Below are positions 1-54,194 of a stretch of DNA of 54,194 nt, one piece after another. Position 1 is the first letter of the stretch. Each line of letters opens with the position of its first letter. Position numbers and translations under genes: made by a program. The stretch comes from a virus: the IMG/VR virus record IMGVR_UViG_3300045988_080883. One strand, 5' to 3'. The notes beneath the pieces were generated by a model that was given only the letters and a program-made list of their open reading frames with translations, had not been told where the DNA came from and made no database searches.

Positions 1-77
1 GTCGTAGTCGTAGACCATCACGGTGACGAGAGTGCCGACGTATACGGCACAATCACCCACAACCGCGCCCGCGGCAC
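1..77. repeat. 77-bp terminal direct repeat, copy 1 (identical to 54118-54194); contig-closure overlap
   Basis: Read directly: bases 1-77 equal bases 54118-54194 with no mismatch. An ORF runs through the junction in phase. Confidence 0.95.
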
Positions 78-18751: not shown

Positions 18752-19898
18752 TACCGCAGACCACCAGTTCATCAGCACCGACGTTGACGAACTGGATGCG
18801 CTGCTCTGTGCGGGGTATGAGCAGTTTTTTGGCACATCCGTGCGCCCCGGCAGCCCGGAACGGCTGTTCATCTCGTGGATTGAGGACGCGATAATCTACG
18901 AGCGTGCCCTCAACAACCACGCTGACAACCAGAATTTGCCCAGCCGGGCAGAGGGCGAGAATCTGGATGCGCTGGCGGAGCTGTTCTACTTGCAGCAGCG
19001 TCCGCAGCCTACCGCAGCAACCTGCACCATGCGTTTCAACATCAGCGAGGCGCGGCAGAGTGCAATCCTCATCCCGTCCGGCACTCGCGTCACGGACGCA
19101 AACGCCTCACTGTATTGGGCGACTGCGGCAGATGAATATGTGCCTATCGGTTCGACCTATACGGACGTTACGGTGGTATGCCAGACCTCCGGCACTGTCG
19201 GAAACGACTTTGCAGTCGGCGACATCAACACCATTGTTGATGTGTACGACTACTATTCTGGCTGCTCCAACGTCACGGCCAGCGCAAACGGCAGCGATGC
19301 CCCGGACGATGACGAGTTCTACCAGCTTCTGCTTGATAGTCAGGCAGCGTGGTCCAGCGCAGGGCCTGTTGGCAGCTACAAGTATTTCGCGAAGAGCGTG
19401 TCTACCAAAATCGCCGATGTGGTGGCGAACAGCCCAAGCCCCGGCACTGTCTGCCTGTACGCCGTCATGGATGATGGCAGCATTGCCCCGGACGAAACCA
19501 AGAAAGCGATGGTGGAGGTTTGTTCTGCCGATGAGGTACGGCCTCTGACGGATCACGTCATTTCTGGTGATCCTGATGTGGTGAACTACAACATCGACCT
19601 GACCTATTACCTGACCCGCGATGGAGATATTTCTGCTGCGGACGCACAGACCCGCGTAAACGAGGCTGTGCAGCAGTACATCAGCTGGCAGTCCGGCAAG
19701 ATGGGCCGGGATATCAACCCGGACAAGCTGCGGTATCTGCTGCTGGAAGTTGGCATCAAGCGCGTGGACTTGCAACAGCCCGTTTTTACCCCGCTGGAAG
19801 ATGGCAAACCGTCCGTTGACCTGACCTCCGACAAGGTGCCGCAGGTAGCAAAGGTGGGCACGGTCACTGTGAAGAGCGGAGGGTACGAGGATGAATAA
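18744..19898 (+). CDS. baseplate protein J-like
   Basis: 384 aa. Placed after the gp25-like gene and before the gpI-like gene. J-like profile. Confidence 0.8.
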   Translation: MRSTADHQFISTDVDELDALLCAGYEQFFGTSVRPGSPERLFISWIEDAIIYERALNNHADNQNLPSRAEGENLDALAELFYLQQRPQPTAATCTMRFNISEARQSAILIPSGTRVTDANASLYWATAADEYVPIGSTYTDVTVVCQTSGTVGNDFAVGDINTIVDVYDYYSGCSNVTASANGSDAPDDDEFYQLLLDSQAAWSSAGPVGSYKYFAKSVSTKIADVVANSPSPGTVCLYAVMDDGSIAPDETKKAMVEVCSADEVRPLTDHVISGDPDVVNYNIDLTYYLTRDGDISAADAQTRVNEAVQQYISWQSGKMGRDINPDKLRYLLLEVGIKRVDLQQPVFTPLEDGKPSVDLTSDKVPQVAKVGTVTVKSGGYEDE

Positions 19899-20904
19899 CA
19901 GTCTGACCGCCGAGCGGATGATGGATTCCTTCCCGCTTGCGCTCCAGAAAGACCCGAAAATGGTTGCTCTGGCGCACTCCATTGCCAACGTGCTGGAGCA
20001 GCGGTTGGACGAAATCAACCTCGGCCAAATCTACACCCGCATCGACCAGCTGCCGGAAGACCTGCTGGACATTTTGGCAAAGGACTTCGCCGTAGACTGG
20101 TACGACCACGACTACGACCTCGCTGCAAAGCGGCGCACCATCAAGTCCGCGCCCTACATCCATCGTCACCGGGGAACCGCCGGGGCTGTGCTGCGGGGCA
20201 TCCGGGCTATCTATCCCGGCTCCCGGCTGGAGGAATGGTGGCAGTATGGCGGCGAGCCGTACCACTTCCGGGTCATGCTGGACATGAGCGGCTCCGATGC
20301 GTCCTACGTCAGCACCGAACGTGTGCTGTGGGCCATCGGCTACTACAAGAGCCTGCGGTCGCACAACGATGGTGTGTACTACCAGAGCACGTTCGGCATC
20401 GAGATCGTGACCAGCAGCGGCTATATCGTGTATGCGGTGCGCCGCTGCGGCACTTTCCCCAAAACGGCCACACAGGGCGGCATCTCCGCTGGGAATGTCA
20501 TCATCGTTACGGACGAGTTCGGCGGCAGCTACGCTCACCCCCGCACCGGGCAGCTTGACGCTGGCACGTTCCCGGCCATAGCCACACAGGGGCACACTGC
20601 CGCCTCGGAAATCGAGGTTTTGACGGTAGACAATGGTGGAGCCTATGCACCGGAGAAACTGGCTGGAACCTACCCGGAGACGGCCACGCAGGGCTTCGAT
20701 GATGCGGGGTATGTTGTTGTGCAGACCGCAGACGGCAGCAGCACATACGCGGCCCCGGCATCCGGCGACCTGACAGCCGGTCTGCATCCGGCAACCGCCA
20801 CATCCGGCGGTACATCAGGCGGAGGGCTTGTTGCCGAGGAATCCGGCCTCGGCGTTTCCTACATCGCAAAGGTGTGCGGCAGCGCACCGGGAATAAATTT
20901 TTAA
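19891..20904 (+). CDS. tail protein I-like (P2 gpI) with repeat-bearing C-terminal extension
   Basis: The N-terminal 130 aa (LPEDLLDILAKDFAVDWYD...KRRTIK...HRHRGTAGAV) match Tail_P2_I. The C-terminus carries four G-T-[FY]-P-x-x-A-T-[QS]-G motifs. Confidence 0.8.
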   Translation: MNNSLTAERMMDSFPLALQKDPKMVALAHSIANVLEQRLDEINLGQIYTRIDQLPEDLLDILAKDFAVDWYDHDYDLAAKRRTIKSAPYIHRHRGTAGAVLRGIRAIYPGSRLEEWWQYGGEPYHFRVMLDMSGSDASYVSTERVLWAIGYYKSLRSHNDGVYYQSTFGIEIVTSSGYIVYAVRRCGTFPKTATQGGISAGNVIIVTDEFGGSYAHPRTGQLDAGTFPAIATQGHTAASEIEVLTVDNGGAYAPEKLAGTYPETATQGFDDAGYVVVQTADGSSTYAAPASGDLTAGLHPATATSGGTSGGGLVAEESGLGVSYIAKVCGSAPGINF

Positions 20905-20916
20905 GGAGGTAGCAGC

Positions 20917-21228
20917 ATGATTGATTCGGCTGGCTTCGCAGACCTGCGAGGCTATCTCAAACGGCGCATTGCCTGTGCGCGTTTCCGTGTCGGCTCGACC
21001 TACTACACCGTTCCGCTTTCCGGCATCGACATTCTGGCTGATGGTACTGTCCGCGCCAGAGTGTCCATCACCGGGCTGGGCGAGATTACGGTGAACCGTG
21101 TGGAACTGCTCAACTCGGACAATCAGGTCTGGGCGCACGAGGACGTAAACATCAAAATCTCGACAGGTCAGACTGGTATCCTGTACTGGTTTGACTTCAC
21201 GTTCACCGAGAAAAAGAAGGAGGAGTGA
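20917..21228 (+). CDS. hypothetical tail-fibre module protein
   Basis: AAGGAGG RBS, 103 aa. No family was recognised. Confidence 0.35.
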   Translation: MIDSAGFADLRGYLKRRIACARFRVGSTYYTVPLSGIDILADGTVRARVSITGLGEITVNRVELLNSDNQVWAHEDVNIKISTGQTGILYWFDFTFTEKKKEE

Positions 21229-21746
21229 CCGTGTATCAGAAAACTGATTGGCGTGACCATGTTACGGACAAGCCCGGTCTGTACATCATCACCGACAATA
21301 AAGACGGAACGTGTACCATTACCCCTGCTGGCAAGGTGATGCAGCAGGGCACCCCGCAGGATCAGGAGCACTTCAACAACATCGAAAACGGCGTATGGGA
21401 TATTTACGTCGCTCTCGGCATGATGTTCAATACCGTTCGGCAGCAGGGCTGGCAGCTGAACGAAACTGTGGCCACTATCGATAACTCGTGGCAGATCGTG
21501 TCCGGCAGCGTTGACCTGACCAACGCCCGCACCTATCCCTGTAACAACTCCAAAAAGAGCGTGTCGCTGGGCAAGAACATGGGTAGCACCAGCTATCTGG
21601 TTATGACCGAACTGGTCAAATCCGATGGCCCTGTCGGGGATATTGAAGTCAGCGAGAAGCTGGTCAACGGCTTCAAACTGGCCTACAACGGCTCCGCAAA
21701 GTCTGCCACCATCAAATACATCGCAATCGGAGGTACTCTGAAATGA
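21225..21746 (+). CDS. putative tail fibre protein
   Basis: 173 aa. GTPQDQEHFNNIENGVWD resembles conserved N-terminal motifs of Firmicutes phage fibre proteins. GTG start at 21225 or 21231. Confidence 0.45.
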   Translation: MTVYQKTDWRDHVTDKPGLYIITDNKDGTCTITPAGKVMQQGTPQDQEHFNNIENGVWDIYVALGMMFNTVRQQGWQLNETVATIDNSWQIVSGSVDLTNARTYPCNNSKKSVSLGKNMGSTSYLVMTELVKSDGPVGDIEVSEKLVNGFKLAYNGSAKSATIKYIAIGGTLK

Positions 21747-22105
21747 CCGTTATCGAGAAAAATTCCGGCACCAAGATTCCCTACGAGGTCGTCAAGAACA
21801 AAATCTGCTTCGATGATGACCTGACCATCAACCTCGCCAAGCGCGAGGACGACCGTGACGTTCACATTGATGTGTGCTACGACAACTATGGCGAACTGGT
21901 CATCGGCGCAGCTGCCGGCCGCAGCTATGTGGCGGAAATCGATATCCCTGCCCGCCGGTACACCCAGCCGGAGCCCATTGAGGAAGTGACCGCAGACGGC
22001 GAGGAGAACGCCGAGGGCGGAGCCCGCATGGGCAACAGCACCCCGGCGGAGCCGATTCCGTTCTCTATGGACAATGTGACCCTGACCCTGTGGGCCATCG
22101 ACTGA
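21743..22105 (+). CDS. hypothetical tail-fibre module protein
   Basis: ATGA overlap with the preceding gene, 120 aa. Confidence 0.35.
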   Translation: MTVIEKNSGTKIPYEVVKNKICFDDDLTINLAKREDDRDVHIDVCYDNYGELVIGAAAGRSYVAEIDIPARRYTQPEPIEEVTADGEENAEGGARMGNSTPAEPIPFSMDNVTLTLWAID

Positions 22106-22120
22106 TAGGAGGTAACTACT

Positions 22121-23200
22121 ATGGCTGCAAATTTTGACCTGACCAATCTGGCCGTCACTGGCCTTGCACCCGGCAATGAGCTGATTTATGACAACGCCGG
22201 TATGCCGTCCATCATGGTGAAGATCCCGAAGATGACCTACAAGCAGCTGGGCATGGGCGAAAGCACCGCTGTACACCCTGCCTTTATCGTCAACGGCACT
22301 GAGGTGGACGCTATCTACATCTCCAAGTATCTGAACATCGTGCAGGATGGTCGTGCCTATTCCATCGGCGGTGTTGACCCCGCTGCCGGCATGAACTTTG
22401 ACCAGGCACGGCAGTATTGTGAGGCGAAGGGCGAGGGCTGGCATTGCATGACCCGCATCGAATGGGGACTGATTCTGCGCTGGTGCATTGCCAACGGCTT
22501 TCTGCCCAAGGGCAACACCAGTTGGGGCAAGCATCCCAGTGAGAACGTCTACAAGGCGATTCCGACCTACAAGGATGGCGACAAAGGTACTGGCCGTACT
22601 GCAACTGGCACCGGCCCTCTGACTTGGTATCACGACCAGACTCCGTCTGGCATTGCTGACCTCACCGGCAACATCTGGGAGTGGTCTGGCGGTGTGCGCA
22701 TGGTATACGGCGAACTTCAGGTTCTGGCCAATAACAACGGCGCGGATTCCGCACACAGCCAGTCTGCAACTTCTGCGGAGTGGAAAGCCATCAACGCTGC
22801 GGACGGCACTCTGATTACCCCCAACGGCAGCGGCACCACTTCCGGTTCTGTCAAGGCTGACCATATCAGTGGTAAGCTGGTCTGGTCCACCAACATTACC
22901 GTCAAGAAGGATGAATCTGACTACGAAACTGAGGCACAGATCGAGTGCGACAGCACCATCAAGGACGGTGCGAAGCTTTGGCTGTACAATCTCGGCTTCT
23001 TGGAGTATCCCGGTGATACGCTGGAAGACGGCAACGGCTGCTGGTTCAACAATGGTGCTGCCGAACGGTGCTTCTTCTCCGCTGGCCTCTGGAACTACTC
23101 CTCTTTCGGCCTCGCCTCGTTCGACGGCAACGGCCCGCGTTCCGGCACGTGGGCGGACTTGGGCTTCCGCTCCGCTTTTGTAAAACTGCCCACTGCCTGA
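22121..23200 (+). CDS. DGR variable (target) protein, FGE/C-type-lectin-fold receptor-binding tail fibre protein
   Basis: TAGGAGG RBS, 359 aa. The FGE-sulfatase-type core carries a GNIWEWSGG motif. The C-terminus RCFFSAGLWNYSSFGLASFDGNGPRSGTWADLGFRSAF is encoded by VR. Confidence 0.9.
   Translation: MAANFDLTNLAVTGLAPGNELIYDNAGMPSIMVKIPKMTYKQLGMGESTAVHPAFIVNGTEVDAIYISKYLNIVQDGRAYSIGGVDPAAGMNFDQARQYCEAKGEGWHCMTRIEWGLILRWCIANGFLPKGNTSWGKHPSENVYKAIPTYKDGDKGTGRTATGTGPLTWYHDQTPSGIADLTGNIWEWSGGVRMVYGELQVLANNNGADSAHSQSATSAEWKAINAADGTLITPNGSGTTSGSVKADHISGKLVWSTNITVKKDESDYETEAQIECDSTIKDGAKLWLYNLGFLEYPGDTLEDGNGCWFNNGAAERCFFSAGLWNYSSFGLASFDGNGPRSGTWADLGFRSAFVKLPTA
23068..23178 (+). repeat. DGR variable region (VR)
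   Basis: 97/111 identical to TR. 12 of the 14 differences lie at TR adenines. VR ends 22 nt before the stop codon. Confidence 0.9.
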
Positions 23201-23213
23201 CTGTAACCTGTTT

Positions 23214-23231
23214 GCTGTGCGATAGCACAGC
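23214..23231 (+). other. hairpin (7-bp stem, GATA loop) downstream of VR
   Basis: GCTGTGC GATA GCACAGC, starting 36 nt after the end of VR/TR homology. Confidence 0.4.
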
Positions 23232-23240
23232 ACGTTCCCT

Positions 23241-23280
23241 CGACCCCGCTTCGCGGGGTCGTTTATAAAATTGATTTTTT
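23241..23280 (+). terminator. GC-rich hairpin plus T-rich tail after the target gene
   Basis: CGACCCCGC/GCGGGGTCG 9-bp stem with a 3-nt loop, followed by TTTATAAAATTGATTTTTT. Confidence 0.7.
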
Positions 23281-23281
23281 G

Positions 23282-23326
23282 CTTTTCGGTGGATTTCTCC
23301 GAAAACCGGAAGAATCCACCGAAAGG
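23282..23326 (+). other. long hairpin upstream of avd
   Basis: 14-bp outer stem (23282-23295 pairs with 23313-23326, one G-U pair) plus a 4-bp inner stem. Confidence 0.4.
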
Positions 23327-23346
23327 CAGATTTTCAATGCAAATCT

Positions 23347-23355
23347 TGTTATACT
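23347..23355 (+). promoter_or_regulatory. candidate extended -10 promoter element (TGtTATACT) for avd-TR-RT
   Basis: TG at 23347-23348 and TATACT at 23350-23355. No good -35 box. Confidence 0.3.
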
Positions 23356-23383
23356 ATCCCGCGTTCGGAGGAGGGTCTACCGC

Positions 23384-23749
23384 ATGGCAGAAGAATTGAA
23401 ACTTATGCAGAAAGTATACGACATGATGGAGTATGCTTATCCGGCTTTGGCCCAGTATCCGAAATCGGAAAAATTTGCGCTTTGCACGGATATAAAGCAC
23501 TGCATGGATATCATGTTGGAGCGTACCATCGAGGCGCAGAAAAAGTATTACAAGAAGACTACCTTGCAGGAACTGGACGTTGAGATTATGAAGCTCCGCG
23601 CATATCTCCGGCTATCCCATGAGTTAGGATTCCTGCCTATGAAGAAATACGAAGTCTGGTCTGGCATGGTGGTCGAAATCGGAAAGATGTTGGGCGGCTG
23701 GCTGAAAACCGTCAACGGTCAGCCGAAAAACATAGGGAATCGGCCGTAG
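23384..23749 (+). CDS. avd: DGR accessory variability determinant (Avd), four-helix-bundle family
   Basis: Start ATG 23384 after GGAGGAGG. 121 aa, helical and basic (KFALCTDIKHCMDIMLERTIEAQKKYYK). Its stop lies 2 nt before TR. Confidence 0.8.
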   Translation: MAEELKLMQKVYDMMEYAYPALAQYPKSEKFALCTDIKHCMDIMLERTIEAQKKYYKKTTLQELDVEIMKLRAYLRLSHELGFLPMKKYEVWSGMVVEIGKMLGGWLKTVNGQPKNIGNRP

Positions 23750-23750
23750 C

Positions 23751-23861
23751 GTGCTTCTACTCCGGCGGCAACTGGAACAACTCCTCTTACGGCCTCGCCT
23801 CGTTCAACGGCAACAACCCGCGTTCCAACACGAGGGCGAACTTGGGCTTCCGCTCCGCTTT
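23751..23861 (+). repeat. DGR template repeat (TR)
   Basis: Non-coding copy of VR with 20 adenines. In the VR frame these fall in 8 AAC, 2 TAC, 1 ACG and 1 AGG codons. Confidence 0.9.
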
Positions 23862-24030
23862 GCCTCATCGTCAGATACTGCAAGCTCATGGGCTTGCTCT
23901 CAGTACAGAGGGATAAAGGGGTCGATTCCCTTGGTTGCAATATGCAGCCTGAAAACACCAGTATTCTGGCCAGTGTTCCGGCGTGTTGGGCGCACGGCAC
24001 TCGTCAGGGTGCGACCTCAGGAGGGATTTG
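23862..24030 (+). ncRNA. DGR RNA spacer region between TR and RT
   Basis: About 170 nt, non-coding. Contains hairpins and a 12-nt segment (23920-23931) complementary to 23734-23745 just upstream of TR. Confidence 0.4.
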
Positions 24031-25128
24031 TTGGAAAAATACAGACACGTTTTTGAACGTTTTGCAACGTTCGACAATATGTATGACGGTTATCTGAAAG
24101 CCCGCAAACACAAGCGGCAACAGGATTGCGTACTCCAGTACACAAATCTCCTTGAGGATAATTTGATAGATTCGGTGAATCGGCTCCAGTGGCATGAATA
24201 CCACACCGGGCGGCTTCACCAGTTTTATGAATACTATCCGAAGCTGCGACTTATCAGCAGCTTGCCGTTCTACGACAGAGTTATCAACTGTGCAGCGCAC
24301 AATGTCCTGTGGCCGATCTACCGCAAGTCGATGTATGAGTACAGTTTTGGCAGCATCGAGGAGAAAGGTCCTATCCGCGCATCAAGGACTGTTCAGCAGT
24401 GGATGCGAAGCTATGCCCGCAAGCCGGGTGACTGGTACATCGTCAAGATGGACATTGCCAAGTTCTTTTTCCGTATCCCGGTGGATGTTCAGCTAAGGGA
24501 GCTTTCCAAACCGCTGGATGACCCGGACATGGTGTGGTTTCTGGAACAGGCTATCCGCTGCGATGGTCGGCCGCTGGGATTGCCCGTGTACTGCACGGAT
24601 GTGACCACCGCCGAGCGGATCTCCGGCATCGGGATGCAAGTCGGCAGCCTCATTTCGCAGATGACCGCCAATGTGGTTATGACCCCAACGGACTACTACA
24701 TCAAGCGGGAGCTGCAGGTGCCGGAACACGCTCGGTTCATGGATGACATGATGTGCATTGTCGATGGCAAAAAGGCGGCATGGGAAGTCGTGGGGTATGT
24801 CGATGACTACCTGCGTACCAATGTTGGTTTGCAGCTGAACGACAAAACAGCGGTTATCCCGCTTGGCAAACCTGTTGAATTTGTCGGGCGAAAAATCACC
24901 CCTGATAAAATCGAGCTGCGGCGGCAGACCTCTCTCGGCATGAAGAAACATCTTCGATATGTCAGAGAGGCCTACGGTCGTGGCGAGGTTCCACTTGAGT
25001 ACGCCCTGAGCGTGATTCAGAGCTATCTGGGCTTGATGCAGGACTGCAACAACGATGCCCTGCGAAATCAGATTCTGGAGGACTACGTTCTGGTTCGCCA
25101 CTCAGATATGCTGGATGCAGCAGAATAA
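24031..25128 (+). CDS. DGR-type reverse transcriptase
   Basis: TTG 24031 (or 24028) follows AGGAGGG; the maximal ORF starts at GTG 23983. RT motifs include RFMDD (YxDD box) and QVGSLISQ, the [LIV]GxxxSQ signature of DGR RTs. Confidence 0.9.
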   Translation: MEKYRHVFERFATFDNMYDGYLKARKHKRQQDCVLQYTNLLEDNLIDSVNRLQWHEYHTGRLHQFYEYYPKLRLISSLPFYDRVINCAAHNVLWPIYRKSMYEYSFGSIEEKGPIRASRTVQQWMRSYARKPGDWYIVKMDIAKFFFRIPVDVQLRELSKPLDDPDMVWFLEQAIRCDGRPLGLPVYCTDVTTAERISGIGMQVGSLISQMTANVVMTPTDYYIKRELQVPEHARFMDDMMCIVDGKKAAWEVVGYVDDYLRTNVGLQLNDKTAVIPLGKPVEFVGRKITPDKIELRRQTSLGMKKHLRYVREAYGRGEVPLEYALSVIQSYLGLMQDCNNDALRNQILEDYVLVRHSDMLDAAE

Positions 25129-25136
25129 AATCAAAA

Positions 25137-25172
25137 GGCAGCTTCACCCGCCGGGGTGTGGCTGCCTTTTTT
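25137..25172 (+). terminator. intrinsic terminator ending the DGR cassette
   Basis: The 30-nt hairpin 25137-25166 forms 12 pairs (one a G-U pair) with one internal mismatch and a GCCG loop, followed by TTTTTT. Confidence 0.8.
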
Positions 25173-25187
25173 GTGCAGGAGGACACA

Positions 25188-25610
25188 ATGAGTATCCAAG
25201 AAATACTGACGGCGGGGGGCGGGACGCTGATAGTCCTCCTTACGCTGGTCCAGATCGCCCCCATCAAACTGAATCCGTGGTCGGCCATTGTCAAATGGAT
25301 CGGGCACGCTCTTAACGCCGAGGTGTTGGAGAAGCAGCAGGAAACTCAAAAGAAGCTGGATGAACACATCCGGGTCGATGATGAGCGGAATGCGAACCTT
25401 CTTCGCACCCAGATTCTGCGCTTCAATGACGAACTGATTGACGATAAGCACCACACGAGGGAGCATTTTATCGAGACTTTGGCCATCATTGATGCCTATG
25501 AGGACTACTGCCGCAGCCACCCCAACTACAAAAACAACCGCTGCATCTGTGCGGTAGCGAATATCAAGCGGGTGTACAACGAGCGGCTTCAAAAGCACGA
25601 CTTCTCTTAA
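25188..25610 (+). CDS. membrane-anchored lysis-module protein (possible holin/antiholin)
   Basis: Start ATG 25188 after AGGAGG. One N-terminal TM (GGGTLIVLLTLVQIAPI) followed by a helical domain. It lies directly upstream of the endolysin. Confidence 0.35.
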   Translation: MSIQEILTAGGGTLIVLLTLVQIAPIKLNPWSAIVKWIGHALNAEVLEKQQETQKKLDEHIRVDDERNANLLRTQILRFNDELIDDKHHTREHFIETLAIIDAYEDYCRSHPNYKNNRCICAVANIKRVYNERLQKHDFS

Positions 25611-25624
25611 AGGAGGTTTTCTAC

Positions 25625-26281
25625 ATGAGAGTCATCGTCTATCAGGCCAGCGACACATCTGCACTGAGCAAGAACTTCACCCGCAAGGACTTCAAGTGCC
25701 CCTGCGGGTGTACTCGCCAGATGGTCGATTCGGAACTGGTCGAAAAACTTCAGGCCATCCGGGACAAGCTGGGCAAGGCCATCAAGGTGACCAGCGGATA
25801 CCGCTGCATTACGCACAATGCCAGCAAAACCGTTGGCGGAAGCCCAAATTCCAAGCACCGCTATGGTATGGCGGCAGACTGGCGCATGGTGGACCGCAGC
25901 ATCAATCCTGTGGCCTTGGGCATCATCGCCGCCCAGTATTTCAAGGCGGTGGGCATCTACTGGTATGACGGCTGCGCCATCGTACACACCGATACCCGCG
26001 ATGCAAAGGCAACGTGGCTGTGCGATGCCCCGCGGCACTACCCCAGCACCACCTACCAGAAGTTCATTCTGCCGACCATCCGCAGGGGCTGCACCGGGGA
26101 TGCAAACCGTGCAGCCACGAAGATGCTCCAGCGGCTGCTGGGGCTGACCCCGGACGGCATTTTCGGCGAGGGCACCGAGAACGCTCTGCTGAAAGCGCAG
26201 GAGGCGCACGGACTGGCCGTGGACGGCATCTGCGGTCCTGCCAGCTGGAAGGCCATCTCCGGGGCTTCCAAGTACCTGTGA
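25625..26281 (+). CDS. endolysin: peptidase M15-type domain plus PG_binding_1 domain
   Basis: SGYRCITHNASKTVGGSPNSKHRYGMAAD and VHTD zinc-peptidase motifs. The C-terminus LQRLLGLTPDGIFGEGTENALLKAQEAHGLAVDGICG is a peptidoglycan-binding repeat. Confidence 0.85.
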   Translation: MRVIVYQASDTSALSKNFTRKDFKCPCGCTRQMVDSELVEKLQAIRDKLGKAIKVTSGYRCITHNASKTVGGSPNSKHRYGMAADWRMVDRSINPVALGIIAAQYFKAVGIYWYDGCAIVHTDTRDAKATWLCDAPRHYPSTTYQKFILPTIRRGCTGDANRAATKMLQRLLGLTPDGIFGEGTENALLKAQEAHGLAVDGICGPASWKAISGASKYL

Positions 26282-26359
26282 AACATCCGATATAACCAAC
26301 ACGACAAAACGGCGCAGGGGTGGTTCCCCGCGCCGCTGATACTTATAGGAGGAAATACC

Positions 26360-26677
26360 ATGGAAGCTATGCTGAACTTCGTCCCTGCTCCCGTCGCCAT
26401 CGTCCTGATGCTGGCGGGCTTTATCGCTTTGGCAGTCGGTGGCATCCGGCTGGGCTACAAGGCCACCGTCAAGGATCTGGCGCTGGAGCTGGTCGAAAAA
26501 GCCGAACGGTCCATCATGGGCAGCGGGCAGGGTGCCAAAAAGAAGAAGCAGGTGTTCGCGGCTCTCCGCGCCAAGTGCCCGGCGGCTATCCGCTGGGCTA
26601 TCACCGACGAGGTGCTGGACGCAGTCATCGAACACGCCTTTGATGTTATGACCGCAGCACTGAGCAAAAAGTCTTGA
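26360..26677 (+). CDS. holin, LL-H-like
   Basis: 105 aa with an N-terminal TM (PAPVAIVLMLAGFIALAVGGI) and a charged helical tail with GSGQGAKKKKQV, as in the Holin_LLH family. Confidence 0.6.
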   Translation: MEAMLNFVPAPVAIVLMLAGFIALAVGGIRLGYKATVKDLALELVEKAERSIMGSGQGAKKKKQVFAALRAKCPAAIRWAITDEVLDAVIEHAFDVMTAALSKKS

Positions 26678-28148: not shown

Positions 28149-29087
28149 TTAGGCGGCGGTATTTTCACTCTCAGCCTCTGTCAAAAATGCAGAGGTGAGA
28201 TGCAACCGGGCGGTCTTGAATTCCGGGCCTCTCATGCCCAGACGCTTTGTAAGCACCCGCATCATCAAATCGTGCTTCTGCTGCTGGGTGTACCCGCTGA
28301 TGGACTTGAAGTGAAGGTTGTCGTGGTCACAGTTGATAGCCCATGCGCTCATTGCCAAGCAGAACTGAACGTATGCTTTGATGCGCCCGGCGTGGGTGGT
28401 TCCGTTGAACAGCCGGAACTCCACGGTGCCCTTTGTGAAGAATGCATGGAGGTTGATTCCGTGATACCGGGTGCTGTTGTAGTGGGAAGAATCCACGCCT
28501 CCATCATATCCGTCATTCACCACGCTGTACCAGATGCGCTCTGCATCGTTCCGGCTTGCCCGGCCGTTCTTCTTCATTTCACGGAACAGTGCAGGGTTGA
28601 TTTTGTGGCACCAGTGGTCTGCGCGGTTGCCGATCTGCAGGGCTTCGTAGAACAGATCCTGCCGCCCGGTGGCGAAGTTCAGCAGCCGGCAGAGGCTTTC
28701 GGGCGTGTGGTTCGCACCGTCAACGTGGACGTGGATACCACAGGAGCTGTTCGCCATGGCACCCTTCTTGACCAGTGCCCGGATGACCTCTTGCAGGTCG
28801 GTGATGTCCTCGTACTGGAGAACCGGGGTCACGACCTCGCAGCGGTAGGTATCGTCTGCCTCTACGATTGCACCACCTCTGCGCCGCCGGGGAGTGATGG
28901 AACCGTCTCTCATGCACTTCCATACGCGGCCTTTGCTATCCTTGGCCTCGTACGTCTGGTAGGTACCACCTGCAAAGTGGATGCCGCCGACACCGAAGTA
29001 GTTGGCGATGACGGAGGCGGCTGTTCCGCGGGAAACGCCCGTCATTTCAATCTCAACGCCGAAGTTCTGGCTCTGAATCGTGACCAT
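28149..29087 (-). CDS. amidoligase (Amidoligase_2 / glutamine-synthetase-like carboxylate-amine ligase fold)
   Basis: 312 aa. FGVEIEMTG, CGIHVHVDG and RYHGINLH...VEFRLFNGT motifs are characteristic of the putative amidoligase family of mobile elements. Confidence 0.75.
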   Translation of the reverse strand: MVTIQSQNFGVEIEMTGVSRGTAASVIANYFGVGGIHFAGGTYQTYEAKDSKGRVWKCMRDGSITPRRRRGGAIVEADDTYRCEVVTPVLQYEDITDLQEVIRALVKKGAMANSSCGIHVHVDGANHTPESLCRLLNFATGRQDLFYEALQIGNRADHWCHKINPALFREMKKNGRASRNDAERIWYSVVNDGYDGGVDSSHYNSTRYHGINLHAFFTKGTVEFRLFNGTTHAGRIKAYVQFCLAMSAWAINCDHDNLHFKSISGYTQQQKHDLMMRVLTKRLGMRGPEFKTARLHLTSAFLTEAESENTAA

Positions 29088-30823: not shown

Positions 30824-32446
30824 TTAAACGCTTGGAATCTCACAAAACAAAACGAACACGTTGCCGACCATTTGAATGGTGACCTCGTGTTCGTTTTGCT
30901 CTTCATTGGTGGAGCAATCAGGAGTCAAAACGAACATTTTGGCATCTGGCGAATCCTCGCCATCCGGCGGGTCTTCCTCGGTCTCCAGAGGGATCTCAAC
31001 GCTATTGTCCTTGCCCATAAAGGAAAAGACCAGCTTCAGGCGGTTGTCATCGTAGATGTAGGCTGCGACAAGGAAGTCTTTGAAAAGCTCTGCCTGAACC
31101 TCCCTGTCGTGTACATCCTTGCTGCGAAGAACGTGGAGTTCGTCAATCAAGTCCTCCCGATTGATTTTGACCACATCCCTCTTGGCTGCGCTCAACTGGG
31201 CGGTCAGCTTTGAGTTCTCAGTCTCCAATTCAACCATCCGGCTGCGGGTGGCCTCTGTGATAATTCCCATCTCGATGGCTTTCAGCATATTCGAGGTGGC
31301 CTTTTTGTTTTCGGCCAGCTGCTGCTCCAACGCCTCGATCTGGAGGTCATTGTCGTGCTTTTTCCAATACTGGACCGTCTGATCTGCCATCCACTCGATA
31401 ACGTCATCGGTCAGGCAGTACATCTTGATGGCCTGTGCGATGGCGGGCTCGATAACATCCCGGCGGACATTCTTCTTGTTGCAGGCGTGTTCGGTGCGCC
31501 GTTTCTGGCAGGTGTAGTAGTAATGCAGCTCTCCGTTTCTACTGGTGCCGGATACGCCCGTCATGTAGCTGCCGCAATGCCCGCAGCGAAGCTTCCCGGT
31601 CAGCAGGTAATCTTCCGCACCAACACGGTGCCGGGTTCCAACTGGATTCTTTTTCACCCTCATGGCCTCCTGTACCTTGTACCACAATTCATCGCTCACA
31701 ATGCGTGGAATCCCATCCACAATGCGGACGTTGCCGTAAATGTAGATGCCCTTGTACCGCTCGTTCTGGCAAATGCTCTGGAAACTGCCCTTATTCCACG
31801 CAGCTCCCTTGCTGGTCTTGATGCCCTTTGCGTTGAGGTCTCGCGCGATATCCACGAACAGATCCCCGGCGGCAACACGGGTGAAGATTTCCCGGACAAC
31901 AGCTGCTGCGGGCTCGTCCAGCATGACCTTCCCGTCTGCACCGCGCTTGTACCCCAACGGCTGCCGGCCGTTCGCCATGCACTTGTTGGCGTTGTCGTAC
32001 AGACCGCGGGTGATGTCCTCTGCCATGTTCTCGCTGTAAAACTGGTTGACGTTCATCATGTTCCGCAGTGCAAAACGCCCGGCGGCAGTATCGTCAAAAT
32101 CTTCCTCGGCGTAAAACACCTTTACGCCGTAATCGTCCAGCTTCGCCTCGTTGACCATGGCTTGCAGCATATTGCGCCCGATGCGGTTGGACTTCCACGC
32201 CACGACGGCCTGAAACTTCCCTTTTTCAGCATCCCGCATCATCTGCTGGAAACGAGGCCGGTTATCCGTCTTGCCGCTGATTGCCCTGTCCTCGTATGTA
32301 CCAACAATGCGCAGTCCAAGCGCAGCCGCGTGCTTCGTACACTCTGCGATCTGCTGCTCGATGCTGACCTCTCGCTGGTTATGCGATGAGTACCGGGCAT
32401 AGATGACGGCATCGAGGCCAGCAGCAATATTCTTTTTTCTGGCCAT
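30824..32446 (-). CDS. int: large serine recombinase (integrase)
   Basis: 540 aa. The resolvase catalytic N-terminus (AVIYARYSSHNQ...), recombinase domain and Zn-ribbon (CGHCGS...YYTC) with a coiled-coil C-terminus are all present. Confidence 0.92.
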   Translation of the reverse strand: MARKKNIAAGLDAVIYARYSSHNQREVSIEQQIAECTKHAAALGLRIVGTYEDRAISGKTDNRPRFQQMMRDAEKGKFQAVVAWKSNRIGRNMLQAMVNEAKLDDYGVKVFYAEEDFDDTAAGRFALRNMMNVNQFYSENMAEDITRGLYDNANKCMANGRQPLGYKRGADGKVMLDEPAAAVVREIFTRVAAGDLFVDIARDLNAKGIKTSKGAAWNKGSFQSICQNERYKGIYIYGNVRIVDGIPRIVSDELWYKVQEAMRVKKNPVGTRHRVGAEDYLLTGKLRCGHCGSYMTGVSGTSRNGELHYYYTCQKRRTEHACNKKNVRRDVIEPAIAQAIKMYCLTDDVIEWMADQTVQYWKKHDNDLQIEALEQQLAENKKATSNMLKAIEMGIITEATRSRMVELETENSKLTAQLSAAKRDVVKINREDLIDELHVLRSKDVHDREVQAELFKDFLVAAYIYDDNRLKLVFSFMGKDNSVEIPLETEEDPPDGEDSPDAKMFVLTPDCSTNEEQNEHEVTIQMVGNVFVLFCEIPSV

Positions 32447-53879: not shown

Positions 53880-54194
53880 CGTATTCGCACCGCTGGCATC
53901 CCTCCAGTGGGTAGACCGCAACACCATCCACGCCAACGACTACAACCCCAACAAGGTCAGTGAGGAGAACCTGAAGCTGCTGGTGCAGTCCATCCTGACC
54001 AACGGCTGGACGCTGCCCATCGTGGTACGCCCGGACGGAACCATCATTGACGGCTTCCACCGCTGGACAGTATCAGGCCGTGAACCGCTGCTGTCCCTGC
54101 TGGGCGGCAAGGTGCCTGTCGTAGTCGTAGACCATCACGGTGACGAGAGTGCCGACGTATACGGCACAATCACCCACAACCGCGCCCGCGGCAC
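53866..54194 (+). CDS. ParB/Srx-fold IbrB/YbdM-like protein, N-terminal part (continues at 78-276 after the overlap)
   Basis: ATG 53866 overlaps the IbrA-like stop. LQWVDRNTIHANDYNPNKV...IIDGFHRW is the ParB/IbrB signature. The ORF is open to the window end. Confidence 0.8.
   Translation, partial: MENIDVFAPLASLQWVDRNTIHANDYNPNKVSEENLKLLVQSILTNGWTLPIVVRPDGTIIDGFHRWTVSGREPLLSLLGGKVPVVVVDHHGDESADVYGTITHNRARG
54118..54194. repeat. 77-bp terminal direct repeat, copy 2
   Basis: Identical to 1-77. Confidence 0.95.

Follow-up and report, generated by a model that had tools for sequence, protein, structure and literature searches.

Evidence for a complete target-avd-TR-RT diversity-generating retroelement of the Bordetella phage type in a phage genome

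The IMG/VR virus record IMGVR_UViG_3300045988_080883, a stretch of 54,194 nucleotides that is hereafter called the window, almost certainly carries a complete diversity-generating retroelement (DGR) of the Bordetella phage type at positions 22,121 to 25,172. An earlier note, made from the letters alone, had claimed such an element in the layout of Bordetella phage BPP-1, that is, a target gene followed by avd, a template repeat (TR) and a reverse transcriptase (RT) gene, and had described it as aimed at the last tail-fibre gene. We found that the repeats, the Avd protein, the RT, the fold of the target and the cis elements all agree with the claim of a complete DGR. The region combines an adenine-biased pair of variable region (VR) and TR, an RT, an Avd, a non-coding TR next to the RT gene, a hairpin, a spacer RNA and diversification within the lineage. 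The genes and repeats of the element are as follows.

22121..23200, plus strand: coding sequence of the DGR target, 359 aa, the last gene of the tail/baseplate block, ending 22 nt past the VR.
23068..23178, plus strand: VR, codons (residues) 317-352 of the 359-codon target.
23384..23749, plus strand: avd, 121 aa, stop codon at 23747-23749; the TR begins at the second base beyond it.
23751..23861, plus strand: TR, non-coding, with 20 adenines, between the avd stop codon and the RT start.
24028..25128, plus strand: DGR reverse transcriptase, 366 aa from a TTG codon at 24028, with a GGAGGG Shine-Dalgarno site at 24020-25.

A repeat finder applied to 21000-26500 returned the VR and TR, offset by 683 nt, as the sole strong direct repeat. 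Base-by-base comparison demonstrated that the two repeats are identical at 97 of 111 positions and that TR adenines account for 12 of the 14 mismatches (A>G 6, A>T 5, A>C 1), so that 12 of the 20 TR adenines are changed, and none of the 8 adenines of the VR is mismatched with the TR. The probability that 20 of 111 sites would receive at least 12 of 14 mismatches is 2.5e-9 (hypergeometric/Fisher). The repeat coordinates, the identity and the mismatch counts of the earlier note were reproduced exactly, as were the codon contexts: in the VR frame, the TR adenines lie in 8 AAC, 2 TAC, 1 ACG and 1 AGG codons, at residues 319-346 in the C-terminal part of the 359-residue target. They occupy codon positions 1 and 2 only, and adenine randomisation therefore cannot yield a stop codon in any of these 12 codons. 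The repertoire ceiling is 4^20 = 1.1e12 DNA variants, for which the arithmetic of the earlier note is right, and the residue sets available to each codon give a ceiling of 15^8 x 4^2 x 4 x 3, or ~4.9e11, at the protein level. The two mismatches at non-adenines are adjacent to each other, with GC at 23765-6 in the TR and CT at 23082-3 in the VR, and change Gly321 to Ala. No third copy of the repeat was found on either strand of the window with up to 12 substitutions allowed at non-adenine positions, and the best other match to a possible second VR in the window covers only 0.49 of the non-adenine positions.

Diversification was examined among relatives in IMG/VR, where 72 loci have RTs 58-100% identical to that of the window; nearly all of them possess a VR/TR pair with mismatches almost exclusively at TR adenines. 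Ten contigs, the window included, share a TR that is identical at 111 of 111 positions, and their target and RT genes are ~96% identical on average. These ten contigs have 10 different VRs, in which all 20 adenine columns vary, versus 2 of the 91 other columns, namely those of the CT of the window. The earlier note had set this comparison of related genomes with the TR adenines as a check in advance, and the result supports its claim. Across 53 distinct VR/TR pairs (28 distinct TRs), adenine sites differed in 564 of 1125 cases (50.1%; A>G 318, A>T 143, A>C 103) and other sites in 7 of 4846 (0.14%). The same pattern was observed in proteins. The exact target protein of the window belongs to a 90%-identity cluster with 1,545 distinct members, and entropy was calculated from an alignment of 24 members of this cluster and two neighbouring clusters. 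The ten most variable of the 359 columns are all TR-adenine codons, and all twelve such codons rank within the top fourteen; mean entropy was 2.34 bits at TR-adenine codons versus 0.10 elsewhere, and all 24 VR peptides were distinct. Adenine-restricted diversification is active in this lineage, not necessarily in this genome today.

Two further observations concern this variation. At TR-adenine sites, G is the favoured substitute (69% of changes among the ten loci with the identical TR, 56% for the 53 pairs) and C is the rarest, and this skew could come from a misincorporation preference of the RT or from selection for Gly, Asp or Ser codons. One protein of the target's 90% cluster, P0132, from an ENA contig of 3,032 nt, has the C-terminus LGFRAALPHRQIL and not the LGFRSAFVKLPTA of the VR. 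LGFRAALPHRQIL corresponds to the translated 3' end of the TR running into the spacer, and P0132 either reflects a chimeric assembly of VR and TR or, with lower likelihood, resulted from aberrant homing that brought in spacer sequence.

The gene between the repeats had been called Avd-like, with the TR starting by its stop codon, and this assignment was confirmed by the NCBIfam equivalog NF033474 (DivGenRetAVD; 120.2 bits, cut-off 80). The protein also matches Pfam bAvd (111 bits, E = 3.9e-32) and its family, phrog_3206, is annotated as 'Avd protein of DGR'. The RT most likely starts at TTG 24028, not at GTG 23983 of the mechanical open reading frame (ORF), and is also 366 aa long in independent gene calls of near-identical contigs. 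It matches Pfam RVT_1 (64 bits), belongs to phrog_1423 and has the motifs HARFMDD, MQVGSLISQ and KMD, among which are the RFMDD and QVGSLISQ boxes from which a DGR RT had been proposed. Its best match in the PDB is 8ub7_A (E = 5.2e-24), and the next matches, which are to Cas-linked, retron and group II RTs, reach 2.4e-9 or weaker. A literature search for "8UB7" found nothing, and the identity of this chain was fixed instead by tblastn, in which it was 100% identical to brt of BPP-1. When the RT is aligned to bRT, VGSLISQ stands against IGSLTSQ and RFMDD against RYMDD, and equivalents of the fingertip residues K29, F66, R74 and I76 and of D138, which were singled out in the bRT structure paper (10.1101/2023.10.23.563531), are kept. 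Models of group II, retron and DRT/defence RTs left the RT far under their cut-offs (for example, 69.5 versus 300 bits for group II). Judged by its sequence, the RT is a member of the DGR clade. A defence-system reading was dropped, as PADLOC gave generic or sub-family RT matches only, and none for Avd or the target.

The earlier note had named variable proteins of the C-type-lectin/FGE fold as a DGR hallmark, and both sequence and predicted structure place the target among them through a match to TaqVP. The target just passes the Pfam FGE-sulfatase model (24.3 bits, cut-off 23.3), and its residues 21-243 match PDB 5vf4 (TaqVP; E = 1.6e-50). TaqVP serves as the variable protein in the DGR of a Thermus aquaticus prophage; its fold is the C-type-lectin fold of the FGE subtype, and its VR is at the extreme C-terminus (PMC6328139). 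The C-terminal 120 residues of the target, which bear the VR, gave chance matches only (E ~1) in a sequence search of the PDB, and the fold of this third was therefore shown by structure prediction instead. An AlphaFold model built from 50 homologues (pLDDT 78.5, pTM 0.81) superposes on TaqVP over the full length (TM 0.83/0.79, E = 8e-32, 30% identity), with weaker structural matches to FGE enzymes, TvpA and Mtd (TM ~0.3 for Mtd); pLDDT falls to 56-79 across the VR. By sequence match and model, the target is a TaqVP-like, FGE-subtype C-type-lectin-fold variable protein of a single domain. Its PHROGs family is phrog_2889, and a match to phrog_5302, 'tail protein', is weak and partial (E = 3.9e-10, residues 51-115).

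The target gene has the same orientation as the P2 J-like and I-like baseplate genes and three small ORFs, which it follows, and precedes the lysis genes. This slot after the baseplate genes and before the lysis genes is usual for tail fibres. By its gene position and by analogy with Mtd, the target may act as a tail fibre or receptor-binding protein, and, as it is encoded at the end of the baseplate/tail block, its diversification probably benefits the phage by altering the receptor or the host range. The designation 'last tail-fibre gene' in the earlier note therefore holds for the last-gene position, whereas the fibre or receptor-binding identity comes only from that position and the Mtd analogy. 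The DGR may be real and yet diversify another surface or secreted ligand-binding protein, such as an adhesin of the virion that binds mucus or glycans, or a protein that serves the lysogen. Consistent with such a role, no fibre, trimerisation or baseplate-attachment domain was detectable by Pfam, PDB sequence search or structure comparison in this single TaqVP-like domain. TaqVP itself is monomeric, unlike the trimeric Mtd (PMC6328139), and other Faecalibacterium phage DGRs target non-fibre proteins, for example, the Hoc-like Ig protein of Mushu. However, the location of the gene directly after the baseplate genes and three small ORFs, the same order in phage Lagaffe (described below), in which the homologue is annotated Mtd-like, and the weak 'tail protein' PHROG match all point to the tail, and we regard a non-fibre target as unlikely, albeit far from negligible.

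Besides the genes and repeats, the cassette contains DNA and RNA elements that resemble those defined experimentally in BPP-1, as follows.

23157..23178, plus strand: adenine-free GC-rich VR 3' end, CTTGGGCTTCCGCTCCGCTTT, the same in the TR and in the place of the GC-rich/initiation of mutagenic homing (IMH) segment of BPP-1.
23213..23232, plus strand: target-recognition hairpin/cruciform with an 8-bp stem and a GATA (5'-GRNA-3') loop.
23734..23745, plus strand: upstream strand of a duplex, AGGGAATCGGCC, inside the avd 3' end, forming an inverted repeat with the spacer.
23858..24012, plus strand: structured spacer (Sp) RNA from TR to RT, resembling Rfam RT-14 (RF02921).
23920..23931, plus strand: spacer strand of the duplex, GGTCGATTCCCT, spacer nt 59-70.

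The GATA hairpin begins 34 nt past the VR end and 12 nt past the target stop codon, and its DNA fold has -9.5 kcal/mol (z = -4.4). All 59 loci compared have a perfect hairpin of 7-10 bp with a 4-nt loop in the same place; its stem occurs in 15 versions, and its loop is GATA, GGTA, GGGA, GGCA or GGAA. The stems covary: among 14 distinct stems, 99.1% of cells were paired and 6 of 8 pairs were compensatory, versus 29-46% in slid controls. Guo et al. in 2011 described the DGR hairpin as a 7-10 bp GC-rich stem with a 4-nt GRNA loop, located 4-34 bp from the VR, and reported that the stem acts through its structure and not through its sequence (PMC3240598). The GATA hairpin fits this consensus. On the VR side, an adenine-free GC-rich segment of ~21 nt ends both repeats, after which homology breaks off abruptly, and every lineage keeps the GGYTTCCGCKCCGCTT motif at the 3' end of its VR. 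This GC-rich end may, by analogy, share the function of its BPP-1 counterpart (PMC3240598).

The spacer aligned to the full RT-14 model (1-144) at 42.4 bits (E = 1.3e-4), under the gathering score of 48.1, and Rfam at gathering thresholds gave no match in the whole window. Orthologous spacers of six relatives (L069, L033, L072, L078, L025 and L040) scored 49.4-72.8 bits, so the copy in the window is a diverged RT-14 relative by position and structure and not a member by score. RNAalifold across 16 lineages demonstrated compensatory change in 24 of 39 pairs of the spacer. Within the spacer, the duplex strand is preceded by a conserved AUAAAGG (23913-23919), in which A23917 is spacer nt 56 and G23918 is nt 57, and is followed by a stem-loop (23933-23949) and an invariant AAAA (23952-23955). 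The avd:spacer duplex occurs in 16 of 16 lineages, and strands from the same lineage pair more stably (mean dG -24.5 kcal/mol) than strands from different lineages (-18.0; RNAduplex). Its central 6 bp were 98.8% paired, with 6 of 6 compensatory, versus 14-44% in slid controls, in segments that were hand-extracted from RNAduplex output, a procedure that favours pairing. In the study of the bRT-Avd-RNA complex (10.1101/2023.10.23.563531), the template-primer duplex of TR and Sp was reported to end at the priming A56, followed by G57, and the 'cPRT Stop' duplex between avd and Sp was located at Sp59-70, with a short stem-loop and unpaired adenosines after it. Pairing of avd 23734-45 with spacer 23920-31 appears to be the analogue of this BPP-1 duplex, and A23917 is a candidate cDNA primer by the same comparison.

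Taken on the model of BPP-1, these parts suggest the following route. A dedicated promoter upstream of avd would produce a transcript of avd, TR, spacer and RT, and the RT and Avd would bind the spacer RNA to form an RT-Avd-RNA particle. The duplex of avd 23734-45 with spacer 23920-31, together with the stem-loop and the adenosines, would set the 3' end of the TR against the priming adenosine, probably A23917 in the conserved AUAAAGG, which would prime in cis. The cDNA would then be extended across the TR with random misincorporation opposite adenines, and would replace the VR under the direction of the adenine-free GC-rich VR 3' end and the GATA hairpin. As the outcome, the 12 variable codons, on the predicted C-terminal ligand-binding face of the target, would be re-randomised, and receptor or host-range switching would be the likely benefit, as suggested by gene position and the Mtd analogy.

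Several observations weigh against a complete DGR that works in this manner on a receptor-binding protein. The VR differs from the TR at two adjacent non-adenines, 23082-3, as it does in no relative, and at least one ordinary mutation, RT error or assembly error must therefore have occurred since the last homing event. IMH in the VR versus IMH* in the TR sets the direction of transfer, and a diverged pair of the BPP-1 kind could not be delimited from the sequence, because VR/TR homology simply ends at 23178/23861. The spacer of the window itself lies under the Rfam gathering threshold (42.4 versus 48.1 bits), the duplex segments behind the pairing figure were extracted by hand, and the evidence of diversification comes from relatives and not from reads of this genome. 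For the target, a sequence search of the PDB gave nothing significant for the VR-bearing C-terminal 120 residues, and the tail-fibre or receptor-binding role has, in place of direct support, only a weak, partial 'tail protein' PHROG match.

Part of this evidence would also fit a DGR that is structurally complete but silent or recently inactivated here, with a VR that is the frozen product of past homing and now drifts in the ordinary way. The two non-adenine differences of the VR are shared by none of the 9 identical-TR relatives or the 23 cluster members, a lineage-specific palindrome abuts the putative avd promoter in a manner compatible with repression, and Gulyaeva et al. found no read-level DGR signal in several Faecalibacterium prophage DGRs, including Lagaffe_CP. 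On the other side, all three ORFs (RT, Avd and target) are undamaged and of full length, relatives have the identical TR, the hairpin, the spacer structure and the avd:spacer duplex are all intact, and one dinucleotide change is expected between homings and could equally be an RT or assembly error. We consider a silent element improbable. As a side observation, CT at 23082-3 is the sole non-adenine VR/TR difference in the ten identical-TR contigs, GC being present in the TR and in the VRs of all relatives; its possible sources are an ordinary mutation after the last homing, an RT error that struck a non-adenine, and an assembly error.

That the repeats are a relic of ordinary duplication or gene conversion beside an unrelated retron, group II intron or defence RT, with an adenine bias arising by chance, has next to no probability: generic RT models (group II intron RT, DRT, retron) do match the RT weakly, but the reading is refuted by the adenine bias (P = 2.5e-9 in the window, 564 versus 7 mismatches across the family), by scores far under the cut-offs of all non-DGR RT models (69.5 versus 300 bits for group II) and by an Avd, a GRNA hairpin and a spacer RNA that are all DGR-specific.

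The complete DGR is best compared with that of BPP-1 (mtd-avd-TR-brt), the prototype, which has the same order of target, avd, TR, spacer and RT. As in BPP-1, the VR is at the extreme 3' end of a gene for a C-type-lectin-fold protein, the TR is AAC-rich, an Avd is present, the VR is followed downstream by a hairpin of 8 bp with a GRNA tetraloop, and the avd 3' end pairs with spacer nt 59-70, followed by a stem-loop and adenosines. The bRT of BPP-1 is the closest solved structure to the RT (E = 5e-24), yet the alignment is distant, and the spacer geometry, with the conserved A56-G57 just upstream of the duplex, is reproduced almost nucleotide for nucleotide although the RTs are distantly related. 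The two systems differ in other respects. Mtd is a trimeric protein of three domains, whereas the target of the window is a single TaqVP-like domain; the spacer of BPP-1 is of the RT-10 family and that of the window is RT-14-like; an IMH/IMH* pair like that of BPP-1 could not be delimited in the window; the hairpin of the window, 34 nt from the VR, is at the far end of the range of 4-34 bp given by Guo et al. for phage DGRs; and the window comes from a different type of phage and host, a temperate myovirus, probably of gut Clostridia.

The nearest described system, and the closest annotated relative, is Faecalibacterium phage FP_Lagaffe (Lagaffevirus), a temperate phage of the human gut. Its genes follow the order of those in the window: P2 J-like, P2 I-like, three small ORFs, an Mtd-like target, Avd, RT and lysis genes. 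The targets are 47% identical over 98% of their length, whereas the RTs are only 33% identical and there is no match at the nucleotide level. The Lagaffe DGR was described by Cornuault in 2018 and re-examined in 2024 by Gulyaeva, when a second VR was found (PMC5883640, PMC11792537), and hypervariation of the Lagaffe VR among cognate IMG/VR genomes has been reported. Lagaffe has two VRs and two paralogous targets, whereas the window has one VR and, in a tblastn search prompted by this difference, no paralogue of the target. TaqVP is the best relative of the target by both sequence and structure, and its prophage DGR has the same layout; its sequence match is confined to target residues 21-243, and the VR-bearing C-terminal third matches by fold only. 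TaqVP has 9 variable residues, versus 12 in the target of the window.

The element is an ordinary member of a well-known system, and the understanding of DGRs is unchanged by it. Near-identical copies exist in public metagenome collections and gut-Firmicutes-phage DGRs of this architecture have been published, and this kind of DGR is therefore already known. The region can now be annotated as a functional-looking DGR cassette with base-level coordinates for its proteins and cis elements. It also offers a well-populated example from gut-Clostridia phages, with 72 related loci and a target cluster of 1,545 sequences, in which natural variation of the VR can be compared directly with a TR that does not change. 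In addition, covariation supports the GRNA hairpin and the avd:spacer duplex, which had been defined experimentally only in BPP-1 before, and a likely function can be proposed for the orphan Rfam family RT-14.

RT-14 was introduced by Weinberg et al. in 2017, and its model fits the TR-to-RT spacer exactly, over its full length, with a sub-gathering score in the window. In that work, RT-10, in the spacer of BPP-1, was the sole RT motif tied to a DGR, and a DGR role for the other RT-n motifs was speculation; a search for literature linking "RT-14" with DGRs found nothing. The data above indicate that RT-14 is likely a DGR spacer RNA, which would give this orphan family a role. Features that concern the expression of the cassette surround its two ends, as follows.

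23241..23261, plus strand: GC hairpin resembling a terminator, with TTTATAAAATTGATTTTTT after it, where the tail operon ends; -12.2 kcal/mol, z = -5.3, kept in relatives.
23280..23328, no strand assigned: imperfect palindrome of 49 nt, an inverted repeat (fold z = -5.2) just upstream of the putative avd promoter.
23347..23355, plus strand: putative extended -10 element, TGTTATACT, read from sequence, for the avd-TR-spacer-RT transcript.
23367..23375, plus strand: Shine-Dalgarno site of avd, GGAGGAGGG, read from sequence.
25133..25170, no strand assigned: hairpin terminator closing the DGR cassette, with 17-nt arms that are 88% complementary, then TTTT; the lysis genes are next.

The promoter and terminators were proposed from sequence reading and conservation. 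A TATAAT-like box is present 25-35 nt upstream of avd in all lineages, and a generic promoter/terminator scan found nothing convincing in the cassette and did not call the putative -10 element. Every lineage has an inverted repeat in the place of the palindrome, with a lineage-specific sequence. These features suggest a dedicated, possibly regulated, promoter upstream of avd, and the palindrome at 23280-23328 may be an operator controlling DGR expression or an RNA hairpin. Weak Rfam matches to mir-876 and rox1 at 23278-23330 were rejected as chance matches to the palindrome. In more distant lineages, AATAACG-N5-CGTTATT is found at the palindrome position. We propose tentatively, and with somewhat more doubt than confidence, that RT-14 is the cis-priming spacer RNA of a large DGR clade in gut-Clostridia phages and that the lineage-specific palindromes abutting the -10 box place DGR expression under the control of a repressor. 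If this is true, hypermutation would be switched on only at particular stages, for example, upon induction.

The genome that bears the DGR has an exact 77-bp terminal direct repeat (window 1-77 = 54118-54194), which indicates a circularly closed (or terminally redundant) assembly and a complete phage genome of ~54.1 kb. Its genes include those for a large terminase, portal, major head protein, tail sheath, tape measure, Baseplate_J-like and Tail_P2_I-like proteins, followed by the DGR, an M15 endolysin, a reverse-strand block with a large serine integrase, and a ParB-like gene. By gene content, the phage is temperate, contractile-tailed and myovirus-like. A contig from a human-gut metagenome (L090) contains an almost identical element, integrated beside bacterial plsY, der and a radical-SAM gene. 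Synteny with this integrated prophage ends at window ~30918 (L090 ~18229), after which the host genes plsY, der and radical-SAM follow; the breakpoint falls within the serine-integrase ORF (30824-32446, reverse strand), ~95 nt from its 3' end, and attP is therefore probably at or within the integrase 3' end. An RT scan of GTDB species genomes returned only three loci, in Clostridia metagenome-assembled genomes at 65% identity, which suggests that the host is probably a gut Clostridia bacterium. A megablast search with 21700-25400 as the query, over 50,697 GenBank phage records, gave no match, and relatives were found at the protein level only.

Three minor observations were made outside the cassette. 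The Tail_P2_I-like protein (19891-20904) has, at residues 187-306, four copies of G[TL][FYH]Px[TI]AT[QS]G at a spacing of 34-38 residues, which may be a fibre-like extension beyond the gpI domain. In relative L033, whose RT is 80% identical to that of the window, a DUF3800-VIII RNA (RF03075, 68.4 bits) is located at L033 6647-6709, ~1.5 kb downstream of the RT. Finally, between the lysis module and the integrase of the window, there is an amidoligase-like gene on the reverse strand (28149-29087; phrog_2443, E = 4.9e-92), which may be a moron or accessory gene.

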